Source: Escherichia phage phiEC1
Reading direction: 5' to 3' (one strand)
DNA length: 64,000 nucleotides
Sequence record: KY608965.1
Shown: positions 2,461 to 63,322 of the stretch, in pieces
Layout: every line of letters starts with the position of its first letter
Position numbering within the stretch: the first letter of the stretch is position 1
The notes under the pieces: generated by a model
What the model was told of the DNA's origin: nothing
Database searches by the model: none
What the model saw: only the letters and a program-made list of their open reading frames with translations
Program-made: the position numbers and the translations under genes

Positions 2461-2921
2461 TAGTAAAGGTCCTCAGAGTAAAGTTCTTTTTCATTACCAC
2501 CACGTTCAATACGTACTTGTCCAGCGTAAGTTGCAATAATCATTGCTTCTTCACGTGTCCAATAATTACTATATTGGTCAATAAACCCTTGGTCATCATC
2601 ACAAACTTGTTGAGTAACTAATTGAGGTTTAACTACATCTAAAACTTCTGCCATATCTTTAGAATAATGACGAGCACCTGGAATAATAAGAGTTCGTCCA
2701 TCTTTTAATTTAAAACGGTTGGCTGCGCAGACAATTCGTCGTTGATACTTTTGGTTTTCATCCCAATACAGAGTCTGCCAACAGATTTCAGGAACTTCGT
2801 CTAAAACATTTTGTTCTGTATATTCACCACCGTAAGAAGCTAATTTAGCAGCCAGACTTTCCGGAGTCTCACGCGACAAAGCTTTATCTAACAGAGCTAA
2901 ACGTTCTTTAAAAGTTTTCAT
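2460..2921 (-). CDS. hypothetical protein (153 aa)
   Basis: ATG start; ATGA coupling with the ORF at 2918-3247. Confidence 0.55.
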
Positions 2922-3247
2922 TTAAACCATCCTTTAATACGTTGCCAAATAGATTTTTGTGATTGTTTATTTACACCAATCGAACGAATAACCGGTTGTG
3001 ACTGCTGATATTCTTTATAATCTTCTTTATAGATTTCGTAAGCTGCATCAACAAATGAACTGATCGCTGCCATGTAGTTTTTACGAAGGCCAAATGGCGC
3101 GTCATTATTTTCACGAATAACCGTATATTGGCCTGCTTTAATCTTTACAATTGTCCCTAAATAAGCCCCGTGGTACCAAATATCCCATCCTTCCTGAGTA
3201 GGTTCTGCACATTTACGAAGTTCGTTAATAATATTCAGCTTATTCAT
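2918..3247 (-). CDS. hypothetical protein (109 aa)
   Basis: ATG start immediately downstream of motA. Confidence 0.55.
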
Positions 3248-3257
3248 TATGTATTCC

Positions 3258-3890
3258 TCACAGTACGTTAGTTACAAGGGTAATGATTTCTTTGGACACA
3301 TTAGGGAAGTCAATGTAAGTATATTTACCACCGATCTTAATCTTAACATCATTTTCAAGAGAAGTAAACAGCTTTGATTCAGTTTCTGACATGTTGTATG
3401 CAAAGATTCTAAGAGCGCCATCTCGTCGAATTTCGATCTGACGAATACCTAGAACTCGTTTAGCGAATCGAACTTCTAAGTTACTACGGTTTTCACCAAT
3501 TTCTTTAACTTCAACTTTATCTTTAATATTTTCAAAAACAAAGTTTGCTAATTCATGCATTTCAGGAGTAACTCCACGTGCTTTTCTGGTGTTACGTTTC
3601 TGAAGAAGTTCTGGAGCATTTTCTTGGGCAAAGAGGTCTGCAGCTTTTTGGATAATATCCATTGCTTCGCCTGTTGCTACAAGTCCATCACCGGATTTTT
3701 CGACTAAACCTTTCTTAATCAATACACCAATGTTAGAGTTAACAACTGATGCATTGTATTCTGCTTCCAGAGCTTCACGGACATTGGCAGCAGTGGTGAA
3801 GTTGTTCTTAATGATATAAACCATTATTGCAGCAGTTTTTTCATTCAGAGCGTTTTCAGAAGCTTTGATGATGTAAGTAACTTTAGACAT
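3258..3890 (-). CDS. motA: middle-transcription activator MotA
   Basis: 210 aa; N-terminus MSKVTYIIKAS... and central NSNIGVLIKKGLVEKSGDGL segment match T4 MotA as recalled; GGAG SD. Confidence 0.9.
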   Translation of the reverse strand: MSKVTYIIKASENALNEKTAAIMVYIIKNNFTTAANVREALEAEYNASVVNSNIGVLIKKGLVEKSGDGLVATGEAMDIIQKAADLFAQENAPELLQKRNTRKARGVTPEMHELANFVFENIKDKVEVKEIGENRSNLEVRFAKRVLGIRQIEIRRDGALRIFAYNMSETESKLFTSLENDVKIKIGGKYTYIDFPNVSKEIITLVTNVL

Positions 3891-3946
3891 TTTATTTCTC
3901 CAAATTAGTATTTGTTTTGATAGGTCTATAATATCATGTTTGAAGC
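3882..3946. repeat. 65-bp direct repeat, copy A (promoter + leader + start codon of motA)
   Basis: Identical to 4201-4265 on visual alignment. Confidence 0.8.
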
Positions 3947-3956
3947 AAAAGTAAAC
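3928..3956 (-). promoter_or_regulatory. early promoter (GTTTAC N17 TATTAT) for motA
   Basis: Minus-strand GTTTAC (3956-3951), 17-nt spacer, TATTAT; part of the dispersed taggtctataatatcat module. Confidence 0.6.
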
Positions 3957-3993
3957 TTTATTTTGGGCTCTTTTTCAAAAGCCCTGGTAAAAT

Positions 3994-4209
3994 TTACAAA
4001 CTCATTTCTTTAATAAGGCCAATAAGTTTTGCCTTTTTAGAACGAAGCTTTTCTAAATGATATCCGTTTGAACCGCGAACCACTAAAGAATTGATTTCAA
4101 CTTCTAAGAAATTTAATTCTTCAACAAGTGCTTTACGAGGAGCATTCATACCAGGTTTAACTTTACCGAAACGAGTAGTTGTGTTTTGGGTTAATTTCAT
4201 TTTAGACAT
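3994..4209 (-). CDS. hypothetical protein (71 aa; motA.1-position)
   Basis: Start set to ATG at 4209 (MSKMKL...), preceded by the same GGAG leader as motA; the longer track ORF to 4269 would read through the promoter. Confidence 0.55.
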   Translation of the reverse strand: MSKMKLTQNTTTRFGKVKPGMNAPRKALVEELNFLEVEINSLVVRGSNGYHLEKLRSKKAKLIGLIKEMSL

Positions 4210-4265
4210 TTTATTTCTCCAAATTAGTATTTGTTTTGATAGGTCTATAATATCATGTTTGAAGC
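4201..4265. repeat. 65-bp direct repeat, copy B
   Basis: Identical to 3882-3946. Confidence 0.8.
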
Positions 4266-4275
4266 GCATGTAAAC
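4247..4275 (-). promoter_or_regulatory. early promoter (GTTTAC N17 TATTAT) for the 3994-4209 gene
   Basis: Same module as at 3928-3956; -35 GTTTAC at 4275-4270. Confidence 0.6.
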
Positions 4276-4284
4276 TGTTTTGTG

Positions 4285-4318
4285 AGAAAAAAATGCACAA
4301 AAGGGAGCCGAAGCTCCC
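4285..4318 (-). terminator. intrinsic terminator downstream of gene 52
   Basis: GGGAGC-UUCG-GCUCCC hairpin (4303-4318) followed on the minus strand by UUUUGUGCAUUUUUUU. Confidence 0.6.
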
Positions 4319-4393
4319 TAATCATGTTTGTCCAACCAATACAGCCAAATCACTAGTGCAGTTATTGCACCGAGAAATCCTAAGGCTAGGCAC

Positions 4394-5719
4394 TCAAAGT
4401 GCCTCCAAGTCTTTAGTGTACTCTGTCACAACATCAGTAGACTTCCAATACTCATTTTCTTCTTTCTTAGCTTTAGCTTCTTCTGCTAGTTTACGTGCTT
4501 CATCGGAAGTGATATGGAAGATGTTAAGACCTACCAGTTTATCGACATGTTCTTTGTACATTTCGATTTGTGCTAGCTCTTCAGTCAAAGCTTTACGGGT
4601 CTTGCCTTGAATCACAATTTCGCCACTGATAACTTTTTTGATGAAGTGTGCCTTAGCAAAAGCAAGTTTAAATGCTTTTTCAGATTCAATGATTTTGTTG
4701 TCAATACGTTTCTGAACGTAAGTCTTACGGACTTCAACAAAATCTTTGATTAAGTCTACTACATTATCGTAGACCGCTAATTTACCCTTTTCATTAATCA
4801 CTGTGATGTTTTGTGAACGACGTTCGATGAGACTAAAATCTTTCATGATTTTTTCATGACGTAGCTCTTCGTCATCTGGAAGCGAGTACTCTTTACGGAA
4901 CTTCACCTTAAACCCAAAGCCGTGTTCACCACAATCATCTTCCCATGAGATTAGACCTTTGTCTTCCAACGGGTCAAGAACCTTACTCACATACGTTTCA
5001 CGGTCGAATTTATATGGGATTTCAGTTATCTGCATTTGAGTACGAGATGTGAACTTGTACGTTCCGTGAATCTCATAACGCCCATCAACTTCATGCACTT
5101 CACCACGGAATTCTGGAAATTCAACTTTTGGCTTAGTGACATTTTTACCTTGAAGAGCTTGTAATACGGCCTTTTTGACTGATTTAAAACTATGAGGCAG
5201 AATATTTGTTGCGTAACCGGTTGCAATACCAGAGACGCCATTCAAAAGAACGGTCGGAATAATAGGAAGATAGAATTTTGGTGGAACGTGTTCTTTATCT
5301 TCATGAGCTGGAGCATATTCAGTATCTTTATATACGTTATAGAAATTTTTACTTACACGAGCAAAAATATAACGAGATGCTGCAGCTTTTTGGACTGTTC
5401 TAGAACCAAAGTTGCCTTGGCCATCTAACAGTGGATAGTTGTTGTTCCATGTGTTAGCCATTAATGCACCTGCATCTTGTGCAGAAGATTCACCATGGTG
5501 ATAACCTAAATCTGCAACACCGCCTGCAATTGACGCAAGTTTATGAAATTTTTCTTTATTACCACGAGCCAAATCTAACGCACGATGGACCACAAAACGT
5601 TGAACCGGCTTAAATCCATCAATCATGTTTGGGATTGCACGGTTTTCAACGGTGTACATAGCATATGCTAAGGCTTCATTATCAATAATACTTTTTAGAT
5701 TACGAGAATTCAATTGCAT
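4394..5719 (-). CDS. 52: DNA topoisomerase II medium subunit (GyrA-like)
   Basis: 441 aa; MQLNSRNLKSIIDNEALAYAMYTVENRAIP... with catalytic-tyrosine context SRYIFAR; closely matches T4 gp52 as recalled. Confidence 0.95.
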   Translation of the reverse strand: MQLNSRNLKSIIDNEALAYAMYTVENRAIPNMIDGFKPVQRFVVHRALDLARGNKEKFHKLASIAGGVADLGYHHGESSAQDAGALMANTWNNNYPLLDGQGNFGSRTVQKAAASRYIFARVSKNFYNVYKDTEYAPAHEDKEHVPPKFYLPIIPTVLLNGVSGIATGYATNILPHSFKSVKKAVLQALQGKNVTKPKVEFPEFRGEVHEVDGRYEIHGTYKFTSRTQMQITEIPYKFDRETYVSKVLDPLEDKGLISWEDDCGEHGFGFKVKFRKEYSLPDDEELRHEKIMKDFSLIERRSQNITVINEKGKLAVYDNVVDLIKDFVEVRKTYVQKRIDNKIIESEKAFKLAFAKAHFIKKVISGEIVIQGKTRKALTEELAQIEMYKEHVDKLVGLNIFHITSDEARKLAEEAKAKKEENEYWKSTDVVTEYTKDLEAL

Positions 5720-6786: not shown

Positions 6787-6815
6787 TTTGTGTTCCTCAT
6801 GTTTCAGTAGGACTA

Positions 6816-6844
6816 CTATACCATAATCCTACTGTGTTGTAAAC
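6816..6844 (-). promoter_or_regulatory. early promoter (GTTTAC N18 TATAGT)
   Basis: GTTTAC at 6844-6839; -10 TATAGT inside the TAGGACT...ATCCTA inverted repeat. Confidence 0.45.
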
Positions 6845-7036
6845 AATTAAATTACATTAAAATATGTTAAAGCCAACCATGTTCCAGTGAACGAACATGC
6901 AATGTAAAAACCCGTATCACAAATTGTTCTTAGTACAATAAGAAGTGCATTTTTCATAAGTACCTCAACACAATTGAAAATATTATACAAATCATTGGGA
7001 TACTAAGCAACCATATTCCGATCCACATTTTAGAGC

Positions 7037-7300
7037 TCATATCTCAACTTCCGCGAGTTCCATATATCCTTTGTTGATAACCTCTTTAAGGTCTTTAGAA
7101 AGAATAACACCAAAATGGTCGTTCATATGTCCGTTAACTAAACGAGTTATTTCAGCTTCAGATGACATATAAGGCACGTCTGAGTCCCAATGAGATAGAC
7201 TTAAATGAGTATAAATCATCCCTTCGTCATCTGCGGTGTTGTACATTGAAACAAATTCGCCTGTTACTTTATGTTTTGCGTAGAAAAATTTAAATTTCAT
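7037..7300 (-). CDS. hypothetical protein (87 aa)
   Basis: ATG start, SD AGAGGA. Confidence 0.5.
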   Translation of the reverse strand: MKFKFFYAKHKVTGEFVSMYNTADDEGMIYTHLSLSHWDSDVPYMSSEAEITRLVNGHMNDHFGVILSKDLKEVINKGYMELAEVEI

Positions 7301-7326
7301 GATGTTATCCTCTTTTAGATAGGACT

Positions 7327-7356
7327 ACTATATCATAGTCCTACTTAGTTGTAAAC
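7327..7356 (-). promoter_or_regulatory. early promoter (GTTTAC N18 TATAGT) within AGGACTA/TAGTCCT hairpin
   Basis: GTTTAC at 7356-7351; inverted repeat 7321-7342 encloses the -10. Confidence 0.5.
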
Positions 7357-7368
7357 ACTTTTATGAAA

Positions 7369-18049: not shown

Positions 18050-18079
18050 AATGTTTTCCTGTTTGGTTAAGATAGAAAG

Positions 18080-18109
18080 ATTATACTCCAACCATCCTTG
18101 GTTGTAAAC
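18080..18109 (-). promoter_or_regulatory. early promoter (GTTTAC N18 TATAAT), repeat family 2
   Basis: Module gttaagatag...ttatactccaaccatccttggttgtaaac at 18066-18109. Confidence 0.5.
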
Positions 18110-18113
18110 TGGT

Positions 18114-18791
18114 TTATCGCTGTTTTACACTTAACGGGTCAGGATTCTCAGGGACATCTTCAAGGCCAAGCGCATAACGCTGAGCATATTTTAACATCAA
18201 AATATCTTTAGCACAATCATGAATACTATCATGGGCAACGAATCCTTTTAGCGTACCCATCGGTAATGGACACATACTTAATCCTCGTGTCAACGAGTAA
18301 GCTTCGATTGCCGTACGAATATCACGTTGAGCCCAGAATTTAACCGGTTCTAATTTATCAGTATCAATATCTGGTTCAAGAACACCTTCATCACGATAGA
18401 GGTCACGAATCAAATCGACCAATATCGGGAAGTCAAAGCTCATACCACGGCACCACATCTGTGATTTCCATTGGTCAACTTTATTAGCTCGACAATAATC
18501 TAAAAAGATTTTAATGCCTTCAAGCGTAGTGACATCGTCTTCAGACGGGGCCAAGTTTTTACGTGCTTCAGCCGATTGTTCTTTCCACCATTTCATAGTG
18601 GATTTAGCGAAAACTCGCTTCCCTTTCTGAGAAGCTAAATTAAATTTAATTCGCTTACCTCGTTGAACAAGTTCTTCAAATGATTCAACAACTTCAGGGT
18701 CGGAATTATATGCAATAACCGCAAGGTCAATAACAGCCGCTTTTGATGTATTGCCGAATGTTTCAAAATCTATAATAACATCAGTGCTCAT
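18114..18791 (-). CDS. dexA: exonuclease A (DnaQ-like 3'-5' exonuclease)
   Basis: 225 aa; IIDFETFG...AVIDLAVIA and C-terminal HDSIHDCAKDILM motifs match T4 DexA as recalled. Confidence 0.9.
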   Translation of the reverse strand: MSTDVIIDFETFGNTSKAAVIDLAVIAYNSDPEVVESFEELVQRGKRIKFNLASQKGKRVFAKSTMKWWKEQSAEARKNLAPSEDDVTTLEGIKIFLDYCRANKVDQWKSQMWCRGMSFDFPILVDLIRDLYRDEGVLEPDIDTDKLEPVKFWAQRDIRTAIEAYSLTRGLSMCPLPMGTLKGFVAHDSIHDCAKDILMLKYAQRYALGLEDVPENPDPLSVKQR

Positions 18792-29607: not shown

Positions 29608-29633
29608 TTTGTTCTCCAGTAGTTGATAGGTCT

Positions 29634-29662
29634 ATAATAACACAACTACTGGAGAAGTAAAC
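29634..29662 (-). promoter_or_regulatory. early promoter (GTTTAC N17 TATTAT) with -10 in loop of 10-bp SD-sequestering inverted repeat
   Basis: Arms CCAGTAGTTG/CAACTACTGG (29617-29652); the 3' arm overlaps the SD of the 29290-29607 gene. Confidence 0.55.
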
Positions 29663-30037
29663 TTAAAAACGTAATTTAGATATATCTGCGTTGATTTCGT
29701 TTTGGTTTGCGTCGTATGCAATTAAACGAACCGCTTTAGATGGGTCATTCAATGCATAGAAATGATGGAACATTGCTCGAACGATATCGCCATTTACGAG
29801 TTCTACCTGGATAGGAGAACCTTTTTCGAGTTGGAAATGTTCATAAGCTTTGATGGTTCGCAGATAATCAAGTTTTTGATTTCCGGCTCCAACGATTTGT
29901 ACGATACGTTTGCCCATGTTTTCCATACGAGATACAATAGATTTAGGAGCAAGAATAACGTAGGTTGCCAGCGGAGAAACTACTTCAACAGTTGTGTTTT
30001 CGGTGATTGCAGTAAAAATTGCTTGAGACATATTCAT
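29663..30037 (-). CDS. hypothetical protein (124 aa)
   Basis: ATG with AGAGGAAAA SD. Confidence 0.5.
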   Translation of the reverse strand: MNMSQAIFTAITENTTVEVVSPLATYVILAPKSIVSRMENMGKRIVQIVGAGNQKLDYLRTIKAYEHFQLEKGSPIQVELVNGDIVRAMFHHFYALNDPSKAVRLIAYDANQNEINADISKLRF

Positions 30038-60316: not shown

Positions 60317-60344
60317 AATATTTTCCTCTCGTTAAGATAGATTC

Positions 60345-60374
60345 ATTATACTCAAACCATCCTTGGTTGTAAAC
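60345..60374 (-). promoter_or_regulatory. early promoter (GTTTAC N18 TATAAT), repeat family 2
   Basis: Module gttaagatag...ttatactcaaaccatccttggttgtaaac at 60331-60374. Confidence 0.5.
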
Positions 60375-60378
60375 TGAT

Positions 60379-61335
60379 TTATGATTTTAATGCATTCATT
60401 GCGTTAAAAAGTTTAGAGTACTGCAACTGGAGATTGGTCACCACCTGTTGAGCATCACGAAGCTTAGCTTGTGCCTTATCAAGTTCAGCAGACAGTTGGT
60501 CTACAGTAGCCTTGATTTGATTGTAATGATAATCTTCAGCCGGAAGAAGGTCATTAGAAACATTTAGTTTTACTGCCGACAGTTTGCACACATTTGGCGA
60601 ACCTTTAAACATACCAGATTGTGCTGGAGAATATGCGCCTAGAACCTCTGCATTACCGACTGGTGTTGCTGTAATATTGCCTTCAAACAATGCATTTTCC
60701 TTTTTAAGATTTTGATAGTATTCAGAGTCTTTGTGCCACCATGGTGCAGGAACCTTTTTACCAATAGATACACGAGCCTGGATAGCGATATGGCCCTTAT
60801 TCTTGATAACGTCGATAATATTAAGCTCACGAGAATAAATTGCTTTAATCTCGTGGATATTATCACCTAAAACTTCCAACGCTTGATGGAATACACGAGC
60901 AACGTTATCATTCTTAGGTTTATACGTAAGAGTAAACTCATTCTCACTGATAACCATGATTTCTAACTTATCGTAAGTATATTTCAAATGTTTCATGTTA
61001 ATTGCTTGAGGACGAATACGAGAAGCAATGGCCATCAAATTGTTAAGGTTATTTCTGAACTGTTTAGCAAAATATTGTCCATAACCGCCAATACAAAAAT
61101 TACGAAGTTTCTGTTTGGCCAGTAAACGGCTGAACTCACCATTTTTAATGAACTCTTTAACGGGTGTGTTAGTAACACATTCAAATTGAGTAAACTTACG
61201 AGAATTAATCCCATAATACGAACAGATTTCCTCAATCTCTTCAGGAGTCTTTACAGGCATACGGATAGGATTAGGTCCTGGAGTATATGCGTTCGAGGTA
61301 AATTCTTTGATAAGTTCTCTACGTGTAATAGCCAT
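60379..61335 (-). CDS. hypothetical protein with C-terminal coiled coil (318 aa)
   Basis: ATG start; C-terminal coiled coil. Confidence 0.5.
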   Translation of the reverse strand: MAITRRELIKEFTSNAYTPGPNPIRMPVKTPEEIEEICSYYGINSRKFTQFECVTNTPVKEFIKNGEFSRLLAKQKLRNFCIGGYGQYFAKQFRNNLNNLMAIASRIRPQAINMKHLKYTYDKLEIMVISENEFTLTYKPKNDNVARVFHQALEVLGDNIHEIKAIYSRELNIIDVIKNKGHIAIQARVSIGKKVPAPWWHKDSEYYQNLKKENALFEGNITATPVGNAEVLGAYSPAQSGMFKGSPNVCKLSAVKLNVSNDLLPAEDYHYNQIKATVDQLSAELDKAQAKLRDAQQVVTNLQLQYSKLFNAMNALKS

Positions 61336-62976: not shown

Positions 62977-63003
62977 GTTTTACCTCCAGTAGTTGATAGG
63001 TCT

Positions 63004-63032
63004 ATAATAACATAACCATAGACCTTGTAAAC
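63004..63032 (-). promoter_or_regulatory. early promoter (GTTTAC N17 TATTAT)
   Basis: Shares the 27-mer ccagtagttgataggtctataataaca with the promoter at 29617-29643. Confidence 0.55.
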
Positions 63033-63034
63033 AA

Positions 63035-63322
63035 CTAAAAGAAACTTTTTTCGGTATTTTTTCCACTGAACCAAACAGACTTCGGGATTTTTTGTAATTT
63101 TTCAGATTTAAGTTTCTCTTCCTGTTCTTTCTTATATACACTCTTGTCGTACTGGAGCATCTCTATGGCATTCTTTTGCAAACGATCTAAGGTAATTAAG
63201 GCTTTAGTTTTTCCTTTCAAGGAAGAGTCCTGGCGAACCTCCTCGCTATATTGCATTGTAGAACTAACCATACGATGAGCATAGAGTTCGACTGCAGCTT
63301 TAATTTTTTGCATAAAATCCAT
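63035..63322 (-). CDS. hypothetical protein (95 aa)
   Basis: ATG with AAGAGGA SD. Confidence 0.45.
   Translation of the reverse strand: MDFMQKIKAAVELYAHRMVSSTMQYSEEVRQDSSLKGKTKALITLDRLQKNAIEMLQYDKSVYKKEQEEKLKSEKLQKIPKSVWFSGKNTEKSFF

Follow-up and report, generated by a model that had tools for sequence, protein, structure and literature searches.

Promoter-early stem-loop (PeSL) elements, which combine a stem-loop, an early promoter, a Shine-Dalgarno (SD) sequence and an ATG start codon, flank ORFans in the phages RB49/phi1, PST/T4 and nt-1/KVP40 (Arbiol et al. 2010, PMC2839356; Comeau et al. 2014, PMC4122927). In the recombination described for them, the ORFan leaves as a mini-circle and a chimeric PeSL remains in the genome, with crossovers falling between the -10 and the ATG (PMC2839356, PMC4122927); for PeSL of the PST/T4 type, the promoter consensus is TTTACW-N17-TAYWAT (PMC4122927). 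Earlier work on T4, as summarised in PMC2839356, described spontaneous deletions between short direct repeats and GGGC/GCCC motifs (Singer et al. 1982; Mosig et al. 1998), and a need of the phage recombination system for homology patches of less than 50 bp (Singer et al. 1982, through the same source). Here we analyse a 64,000-nucleotide stretch of Escherichia phage phiEC1 (record KY608965.1; hereafter the window), a Mosigvirus genome from an RB69-like, T4-type phage. In it, a perfect 65-bp direct repeat places the same partial promoter, leader and start codon in front of two genes: motA, the activator of middle-period transcription, and a gene for a 71-aa product next to it, which we call ORF X. 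Comparison with related phages makes it highly probable that the repeat corresponds to the leader and the promoter-proximal stretch in each of two tandem PeSL-like cassettes, and that recombination between these homogenises the copies and deletes the gene they enclose.

The repeat and the two promoter modules

Direct comparison of positions 3882-3946 with 4201-4265 gave 65 identical nucleotides out of 65, and the exact repeat read by the first-pass annotation therefore survived a recount without a single mismatch. Looser similarity between the two segments reaches 84 nt at 93% identity (3882-3965 and 4201-4284). In a scan of the whole 64-kb window, the 65-bp pair was both the longest and the most identical of the direct repeats; no third copy was present in the window at up to three mismatches, and 100 dinucleotide-preserving shuffles, used as the chance expectation, produced 0 matches.

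Gene 52 (topoisomerase II medium subunit, 4394-5719), ORF X (3994-4209), motA (3258-3890; phrog_1345, E = 4.8e-90) and arn.4 (2918-3247) all lie on the minus strand, and transcription passes from gene 52 through ORF X to motA. The initial description of ORF X as the downstream neighbour of motA is correct along the plus strand only, as ORF X is upstream of motA in the direction of transcription.

Read on the minus strand, the motA copy runs CAAAATAAA GTTTAC TTTTGCTTCAAACATGA TATTAT AGACCTA TCAAAACAAATACTAATTT GGAG AAATAAA ATG TCT AAA. Each of the two modules has the form of a T4-type early promoter, with a GTTTAC -35, a 17-nt spacer, an extended -10 (TGaTATTAT) and a predicted start site about 7 nt past the -10, near 3921 for motA and 4240 for ORF X. 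At motA, the -35 occupies 3951-3956, the -10 TATTAT 3928-3933 and the TG of the extended -10 3935-3936; at ORF X, the -35 and the -10 TATTAT are found at 4270-4275 and 4247-4252. In both copies, GTTTAC, 17 nt and TATTAT with the upstream TG fit the TTTACW-N17-TAYWAT consensus of PeSL promoters. The -35 itself sits just outside the exact repeat. Copy 1 (3882-3946, minus strand) takes in 13 of the 17 spacer nucleotides, the extended -10, the predicted start site, a 5' untranslated region of about 31 nt, GGAG and the ATG TCT AAA of motA, and copy 2 (4201-4265, minus strand) brings the same 65 nucleotides to ORF X. With the -10, leader, ribosome-binding site and ATG all present, the repeat does carry part of a promoter, a leader and a start codon for two genes, as had been proposed.

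On the plus strand, the -35 appears as GTAAAC after both copies. This had been noted at the outset, together with an intervening variable block of 5 nt; the motif stands, but only 4 nt separate it from the exact repeat (AAAA versus GCAT, with three of the four positions differing). Upstream of the -35, each module has an A/T-rich tract (CAAAATAAA and CACAAAACA). Both genes open with ATG TCT AAA (MSK) behind the same GGAG, from which the ATG is separated by 7 nt in each case, in agreement with the shared SD and MSK start of the first reading. No stable structure is predicted for the leader of about 31 nt (-2.1 kcal/mol, z = -0.06).

Sequences of the form GTTTAC-N16-18-TAnnnT just upstream of an SD and ATG occur at 15 minus-strand sites in the window, and only the motA and ORF X promoters among them have spacer and leader in common. 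From these features, we infer that both copies are active immediate-early promoters. Promoter-like matches on the plus strand inside the repeat (TAGACA-16-TAGTAT) were also considered and rejected, being at chance level (10 sites found, 10.5 expected).

The SD of motA (GGAG at 3898-3901, within GGAGAAAUAAA; ORF X twin at 4217-4220) is in addition a candidate RegB site. The RegB consensus, GGAGRAYARAA, describes an 11-nt single-stranded target within the ribosome-binding site of early mRNAs, and the motA mRNA of T4 has been described as a good RegB substrate (PMC1702504). Of the 11 positions, GGAGAAAUAAA agrees with the consensus at 9 and departs from it at positions 7 and 8; both mRNAs may bear the same candidate RegB cleavage site in their SD.

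A stem-loop stands before each of the two promoters, the place that it has in PeSL of the PST/T4 type. Ahead of the motA promoter, between the ORF X stop codon and the motA -35, lies SL1 (GGGCUUUUGAAAAAGAGCCC, 3965-3984, minus strand), a GGGC...GCCC inverted repeat with an 8-bp stem and no U tract, which folds at -12.3 kcal/mol (z = -4.07). With no U tract in SL1, transcripts begun at the ORF X promoter may run on through the hairpin and serve motA as well. Immediately upstream of the ORF X promoter is the predicted intrinsic terminator of gene 52, AGGGAGC-UUCG-GCUCCCU (4302-4319, minus strand), followed by a U-rich tail at 4286-4301 and annotated as a terminator in PhAPEC2; a 60-nt fold of this region reaches -17.2 kcal/mol (z = -3.26). 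A search of 3700-4500 against Rfam gave nothing beyond a far sub-threshold match on the terminator.

The terminator loop (4309-4312) varies between phages: the plus strand reads CGAA (UUCG in the RNA) in the window and a majority of relatives, and TTCG in RB69, JS09, PhAPEC2 and LF82-4, where the stem is unchanged. Judged by the alignment, the change is an inversion inside a perfect palindrome, as would be expected of hairpin-mediated template switching.

Cassette presence and leader alleles among relatives

Relatives were taken from GenBank phage records, as IMG/VR gave only two related loci. About 154 phage records match window positions 3200-4450 at 95-99% identity, none of them being identical. 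For the presence test, we used the 156 phage records that covered at least 80% of this region and required ORF X at 95% nucleotide identity or more; it was present in 76 of them. The remaining records, RB69 included, give a two-piece match that spans 933 bp as opposed to 1251 bp, with exactly one repeat unit missing. In the window, this unit measures 319 bp and can be placed at 3947-4265, its register being arbitrary within the repeat.

Nine cassette-less genomes were aligned, and in these a single promoter and leader, whose upstream part is of the gene-52-proximal type, runs straight into motA. SL1, the form of which is conserved in the sister genus Dhakavirus, is lost from the cassette-less genomes along with ORF X. 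When 3947-4265 is deleted from the window in silico, the product is colinear with RB69 over the junction; across 482 nt, the alignment has 1 gap column and 10 mismatches, four of which are accounted for by the inverted terminator loop. The suggestion made in the first-pass annotation that the repeat provides a substrate for deletion of the gene at 3994-4209 is thus matched by what is found in natural isolates: exactly one unit is missing from RB69 and some 80 further Mosigvirus records, which have a single chimeric module.

Genomes with and without the cassette are intermingled in the neighbour-joining trees of the two flanks. On the motA side, pEK20, which has no cassette, shows 3 differences over about 964 positions to the cassette-bearing ST0, and at least 29 to any other cassette-less genome; RB69 shows 7 differences to SHSML-52-1 and Mizar, and 18 to the nearest cassette-less genome. 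Because pEK20 and RB69 are nearer to cassette-bearing genomes than to cassette-less ones, the flanks indicate that the cassette-less state is not monophyletic. The interleaving fits repeated deletions, or one old polymorphism reshuffled by recombination.

The genome of pEK20 has a further peculiarity near the site. Its homology to other Mosigviruses breaks just past the terminator, at pEK20 positions 2760-2910 (approximately 4320-4400 of the window), and the 3' end of its gene 52, 90.6% identical, carries a 34-aa ORF over the gene 52 stop, like motA.1 of T4. The break suggests that the promoter/terminator cassette may also act as a junction for the exchange of flanking sequence. T4 motA.1, a small ORF that runs over the gene 52 end, was considered as a homologue of ORF X and rejected.

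The copies in relatives were compared by blastn-short, since a search allowing substitutions only misses second copies on account of a 2-nt indel. This indel lies in a leader block between the SD and the -10 (3904-3910 in the window, minus strand) that has two alleles in the genus: on the plus strand, allele A reads AAATTAGT--ATTTG and allele B reads AATTTGGTTGTTTTG. The window has A at this position and again at 4223-4229. The commonest state among the cassette-bearing relatives fetched (7 of 11) combines A at motA with B at ORF X; the copies are then about 91% alike, and their longest exact block is 37 bp. A at both positions is found in the window, in ST2, where the exact repeat is 66 bp, and in NHEP29; identity to window positions 4160-4300 is at most 95.8% in every record except these two. 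NHEP10 has B at both positions, and PHB12, NHEP11, UGJNEcP1 and UGJNEcP2 match its B-type motA copy at 98.7% or more. Single copies are of type A in RB69 and pEK20 and of type B in seven of the nine cassette-less genomes fetched. The record of ST2 (OM982647) is labelled Guernseyvirinae/Kagunavirus, though it contains a 171-kb Mosigvirus-like genome.

Crossing over within the shared block of 37 bp or that of 22 bp would be expected to give just these single-A and single-B junctions. NHEP29 has a rare -10 variant, TAGTAT in place of TATTAT (equivalent to window position 3930 or 4249), at motA; NHEP10 has it at ORF X, and mar005P1 in its only copy. The appearance of this variant at different paralogous copies provides further evidence, of a comparative kind, that variants move between them. 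At the level of sequence comparison, then, the two copies exchange sequence and evolve in concert. What is recent in the lineage of the window is the homogenisation of the copies, with only their perfect identity of late date.

These observations suggest how the locus would work. A cassette consists, in order, of a stem-loop, an A/T-rich tract, a T4-type early promoter, a leader of about 31 nt, GGAG and ATG, and gene 52, ORF X and motA would each be served in this arrangement. Homologous recombination of the phage between the two copies would yield both homogenisation and deletions, and re-insertion might make use of the reciprocal circle or follow from crosses with cassette-less phages. In the window, the ORF X copy has acquired the motA-type (A) leader allele. 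The longest uninterrupted homology is 65 bp here versus 37 bp in typical relatives, and with this increase ORF X would be lost more readily than in those relatives. As long as it is retained, ORF X would probably be co-expressed with MotA and shut off together with it, by way of the shared promoter and the possible RegB site.

Age of the arrangement and alternative origins

An ORF X homologue occupies the same slot in 17 Dhakavirus records, CLB_P2, JS98 and IME08 among them. Between Mosigvirus and Dhakavirus, dS is 1.11 for ORF X and 1.13 for motA (70.8% and 71.1% nucleotide identity), and dN/dS of ORF X is 0.23. The equal dS, together with this dN/dS, marks ORF X as a real gene, already in place when the two genera separated. 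In JS10 (3190-3760), also of Dhakavirus, the slot between gene 52 and motA holds an unrelated 75-aa ORF, flanked by a 48-bp exact promoter/leader repeat, and SL1 is common to JS10 and CLB_P2 despite the different ORF. Cassette exchange at this site, which the first-pass annotation had raised as one possible source of the repeat, has in JS10 a concrete example.

When all promoter copies are aligned, the surroundings of the -35 prove to be specific to each position and orthologous across the genera, and the spacer and -10 states are genus-specific and common to both copies. The gene starts differ in a similar manner: ORF X of Dhakavirus has its own SD and begins ATG AAT AAG (MNK), and ORF X of Mosigvirus has the SD of motA and begins ATG TCT AAA (MSK). 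As MotA begins MSK in T4, Dhakavirus and Mosigvirus alike, and ORF X begins MNK in Dhakavirus, the exchange ran from the motA copy into the ORF X copy, three codons deep into the gene. On this comparative evidence, the tandem arrangement predates the Mosigvirus/Dhakavirus split.

A single promoter might instead be ancestral, as in T4 and RB69, with the cassette (ORF X, SL1 and one promoter copy) gained through a PeSL circle or by recombination with a donor phage, the cassette-bearing genomes derived and the perfect repeat a mark of recent re-insertion. T4 indeed has one promoter between gene 52 and motA, integration of PeSL circles has been proposed (PMC2839356), and an A-type circle entering an RB69-like A genome, or a misaligned crossover, would yield exactly the A/A state. 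Set against this, the dS of ORF X equals that of motA, arguing that the gene was already resident in the ancestor from which both genera descend, and ORF X is never found at another site, occurring at only one place per record in 93 of 93 records. We regard such a gain as rather unlikely to explain the locus, though it is a possible origin of the A/A state in the lineage of the window.

A more elaborate version of events, which we hold to be quite doubtful, would make the motA module a dominant donor that time and again overwrites the start region, first codons included, of whichever small ORF lies upstream, conferring on it MotA-like immediate-early expression and RegB-type shut-off and lending motA a second promoter. 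The polymorphism of about 50:50 would then be kept by selection, on MotA dosage or on host takeover by ORF X, and would not reflect neutral loss.

Selection alone could in principle hold the copies identical without exchange, by favouring the same promoter strength, leader and ribosome-binding or RegB site. Part of the repeat may well be such a constrained consensus, as the promoter core and the -10/start-site stretch TATTATAGACCTATCAA are also present at the unlinked early promoters 29662 and 63032. Nevertheless, alleles A and B work at either position, being found as A/B, A/A, B/B, single A and single B; the other early promoters of the window have unrelated spacers and leaders; and the rare -10 variant sits at different copies in different phages, all of which renders this explanation very improbable.

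The first-pass annotation had favoured a recent duplication, on the ground that so long and perfect a repeat is unexpected in a compact genome; a de novo tandem event would have copied the promoter, leader and start of motA onto the neighbouring gene. The 65-bp identity is the point in its favour, and the comparison with relatives leaves it scarcely credible. The layout recurs in 76 records of Mosigvirus and 17 of Dhakavirus, ORF X has diverged in step with motA, the copies are about 91% identical and differ by an indel in most cassette-bearing relatives, and the flanks of the -35 are position-specific and orthologous between genera. An old arrangement with diverged repeats had been set against a recombinogenic one as though they were mutually exclusive; both descriptions hold at once. 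Finally, short repeats can mislead assemblers, and yet a collapsed or chimeric assembly can practically be dismissed, given the unique coding sequence between the copies in 76 independent records and the A/A state of two independent isolates, ST2 and NHEP29.

Some points weigh against the reading that we prefer, in which two tandem PeSL-like cassettes recombine with each other. The interleaving of cassette-bearing and cassette-less genomes could reflect one old indel polymorphism shuffled between co-infecting phages and not many deletions, and the flank trees are unbootstrapped neighbour-joining trees of sequences with few differences. Across genera, the sign of concerted evolution comes down to two diagnostic sites in the promoter core. 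The records show no sign of the cassette moving to other promoter sites, as the mobile-cassette version of PeSL would allow. With regard to RegB, the GGAG context fits the consensus at only 9 of the 11 positions, and the regB of RB69, like the RB69-type RegB, is reported to be divergent (PMC3014915).

ORF X, related promoter pairs and comparison with known systems

ORF X (71 aa, optional in the genus) matches the profile of phrog_6200, a family without known function, over its full length (residues 1-71 of 71, E = 2.2e-39); a Pfam search gave no match above threshold and one below it. Its homologues form 8 clusters only, each 72-98% identical to ORF X, which match the Mosigvirus and Dhakavirus groups. 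An AlphaFold model (pLDDT 76.6) predicts a disordered basic tail (residues 1-22) and a helical hairpin (23-44 and 50-70), and a fold search of the PDB with this model returned no match at E < 0.8. A similarity to ribosomal protein L29 was considered and found to be unsupported by Pfam, and a uL29-type chain appeared only at rank 10 of the fold search (E = 3.6). In the record of NHEP29 (PQ511150), ORF X is annotated with 330 nt, from an in-frame ATG inside the promoter, and the program-made list of open reading frames over-extends it likewise in the window (3994-4269).

Similar promoters recur as families along the window. Another tandem pair of early promoters, at 6808-6853 and 7320-7365 (83% identity over 46 nt, 512 bp apart), brackets an 87-aa ORF (7037-7300, minus strand) and may form a further such cassette. 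Two further pairs of early promoters are dispersed, one at 18066-18117 and 60331-60382 (90% over 52 nt) and one at 29614-29677 and 62984-63047 (75% over 64 nt, including the leader agacctatcaactactggag); rearrangements on a larger scale might use them as substrates.

The locus offers a clean natural data set, of about 156 records, for promoter-cassette recombination in T4-type phages: at a single site, the tandem state, both classes of junction, homogenisation in both directions and replacement in a sister genus can all be seen. For annotation, it explains why RB69 lacks a gene found in half of its genus, how a false upstream ATG comes to be assigned to ORF X and why both proteins begin with MSK. 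For phage engineering and therapy stocks, the prediction is that this isolate, with its uninterrupted 65 bp, will yield ORF X deletion variants more often than relatives with 37 bp. No new mechanism is revealed; this is a new instance of a known one, in which one of the elements belongs to the key regulator motA. A full-text search of one literature library returned no paper joining PeSL with RB69, and neither RB69 nor motA is named by Arbiol et al. 2010 (PMC2839356). A PeSL locus between gene 52 and motA therefore appears to be undescribed, although its mechanism is already known.

By its sequence, the locus has all the features of a PeSL, the functions of promoter and terminator being predicted: a fitting promoter, an adjacent stable stem-loop, an A/T-rich tract with SD and start codon, and a repeated, ORFan-associated element that undergoes indels and replacements between relatives, as in the presence of ORF X in 76 of about 156 records and the unrelated ORF in the slot of JS10. 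As in the described cases, two copies flank a small ORF, a single chimeric element is found in close relatives, the crossover zone extends from the -10 to the ATG, and a relative (JS10) has a different ORF in the same slot. The differences are that one element here is the promoter of a regulator gene, motA, and not of another ORFan; that the homogenised tract enters the coding sequence (codons 1-3); that SL1 is without a U tract; and that ORF X shows no mobility to other sites. Of the products of mini-circle excision, the reciprocal one, the deleted genomes, is what is seen here.

The internal-protein (IP) loci of the T-even phages (Repoila et al. 1994, as presented in PMC2839356 and PMC4122927) are similar in their T4-type early promoters, weaker stem-loops and small exchangeable genes at a fixed locus, and differ in the locus and the genes concerned. 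The T4 deletions between short repeats, in the account given by PMC2839356, share with SL1 the GGGC...GCCC motif; they are laboratory deletions at other loci, in contrast to the variation between natural isolates seen here. Closest in position is motA of T4 itself, which stands in the same place after the gene 52 terminator and has a GTTTAC-type -35, GGAG and an ATG TCT AAA GT. start, but which has one copy of the promoter only, with an 18-nt spacer, a TACTAT -10 and another leader.

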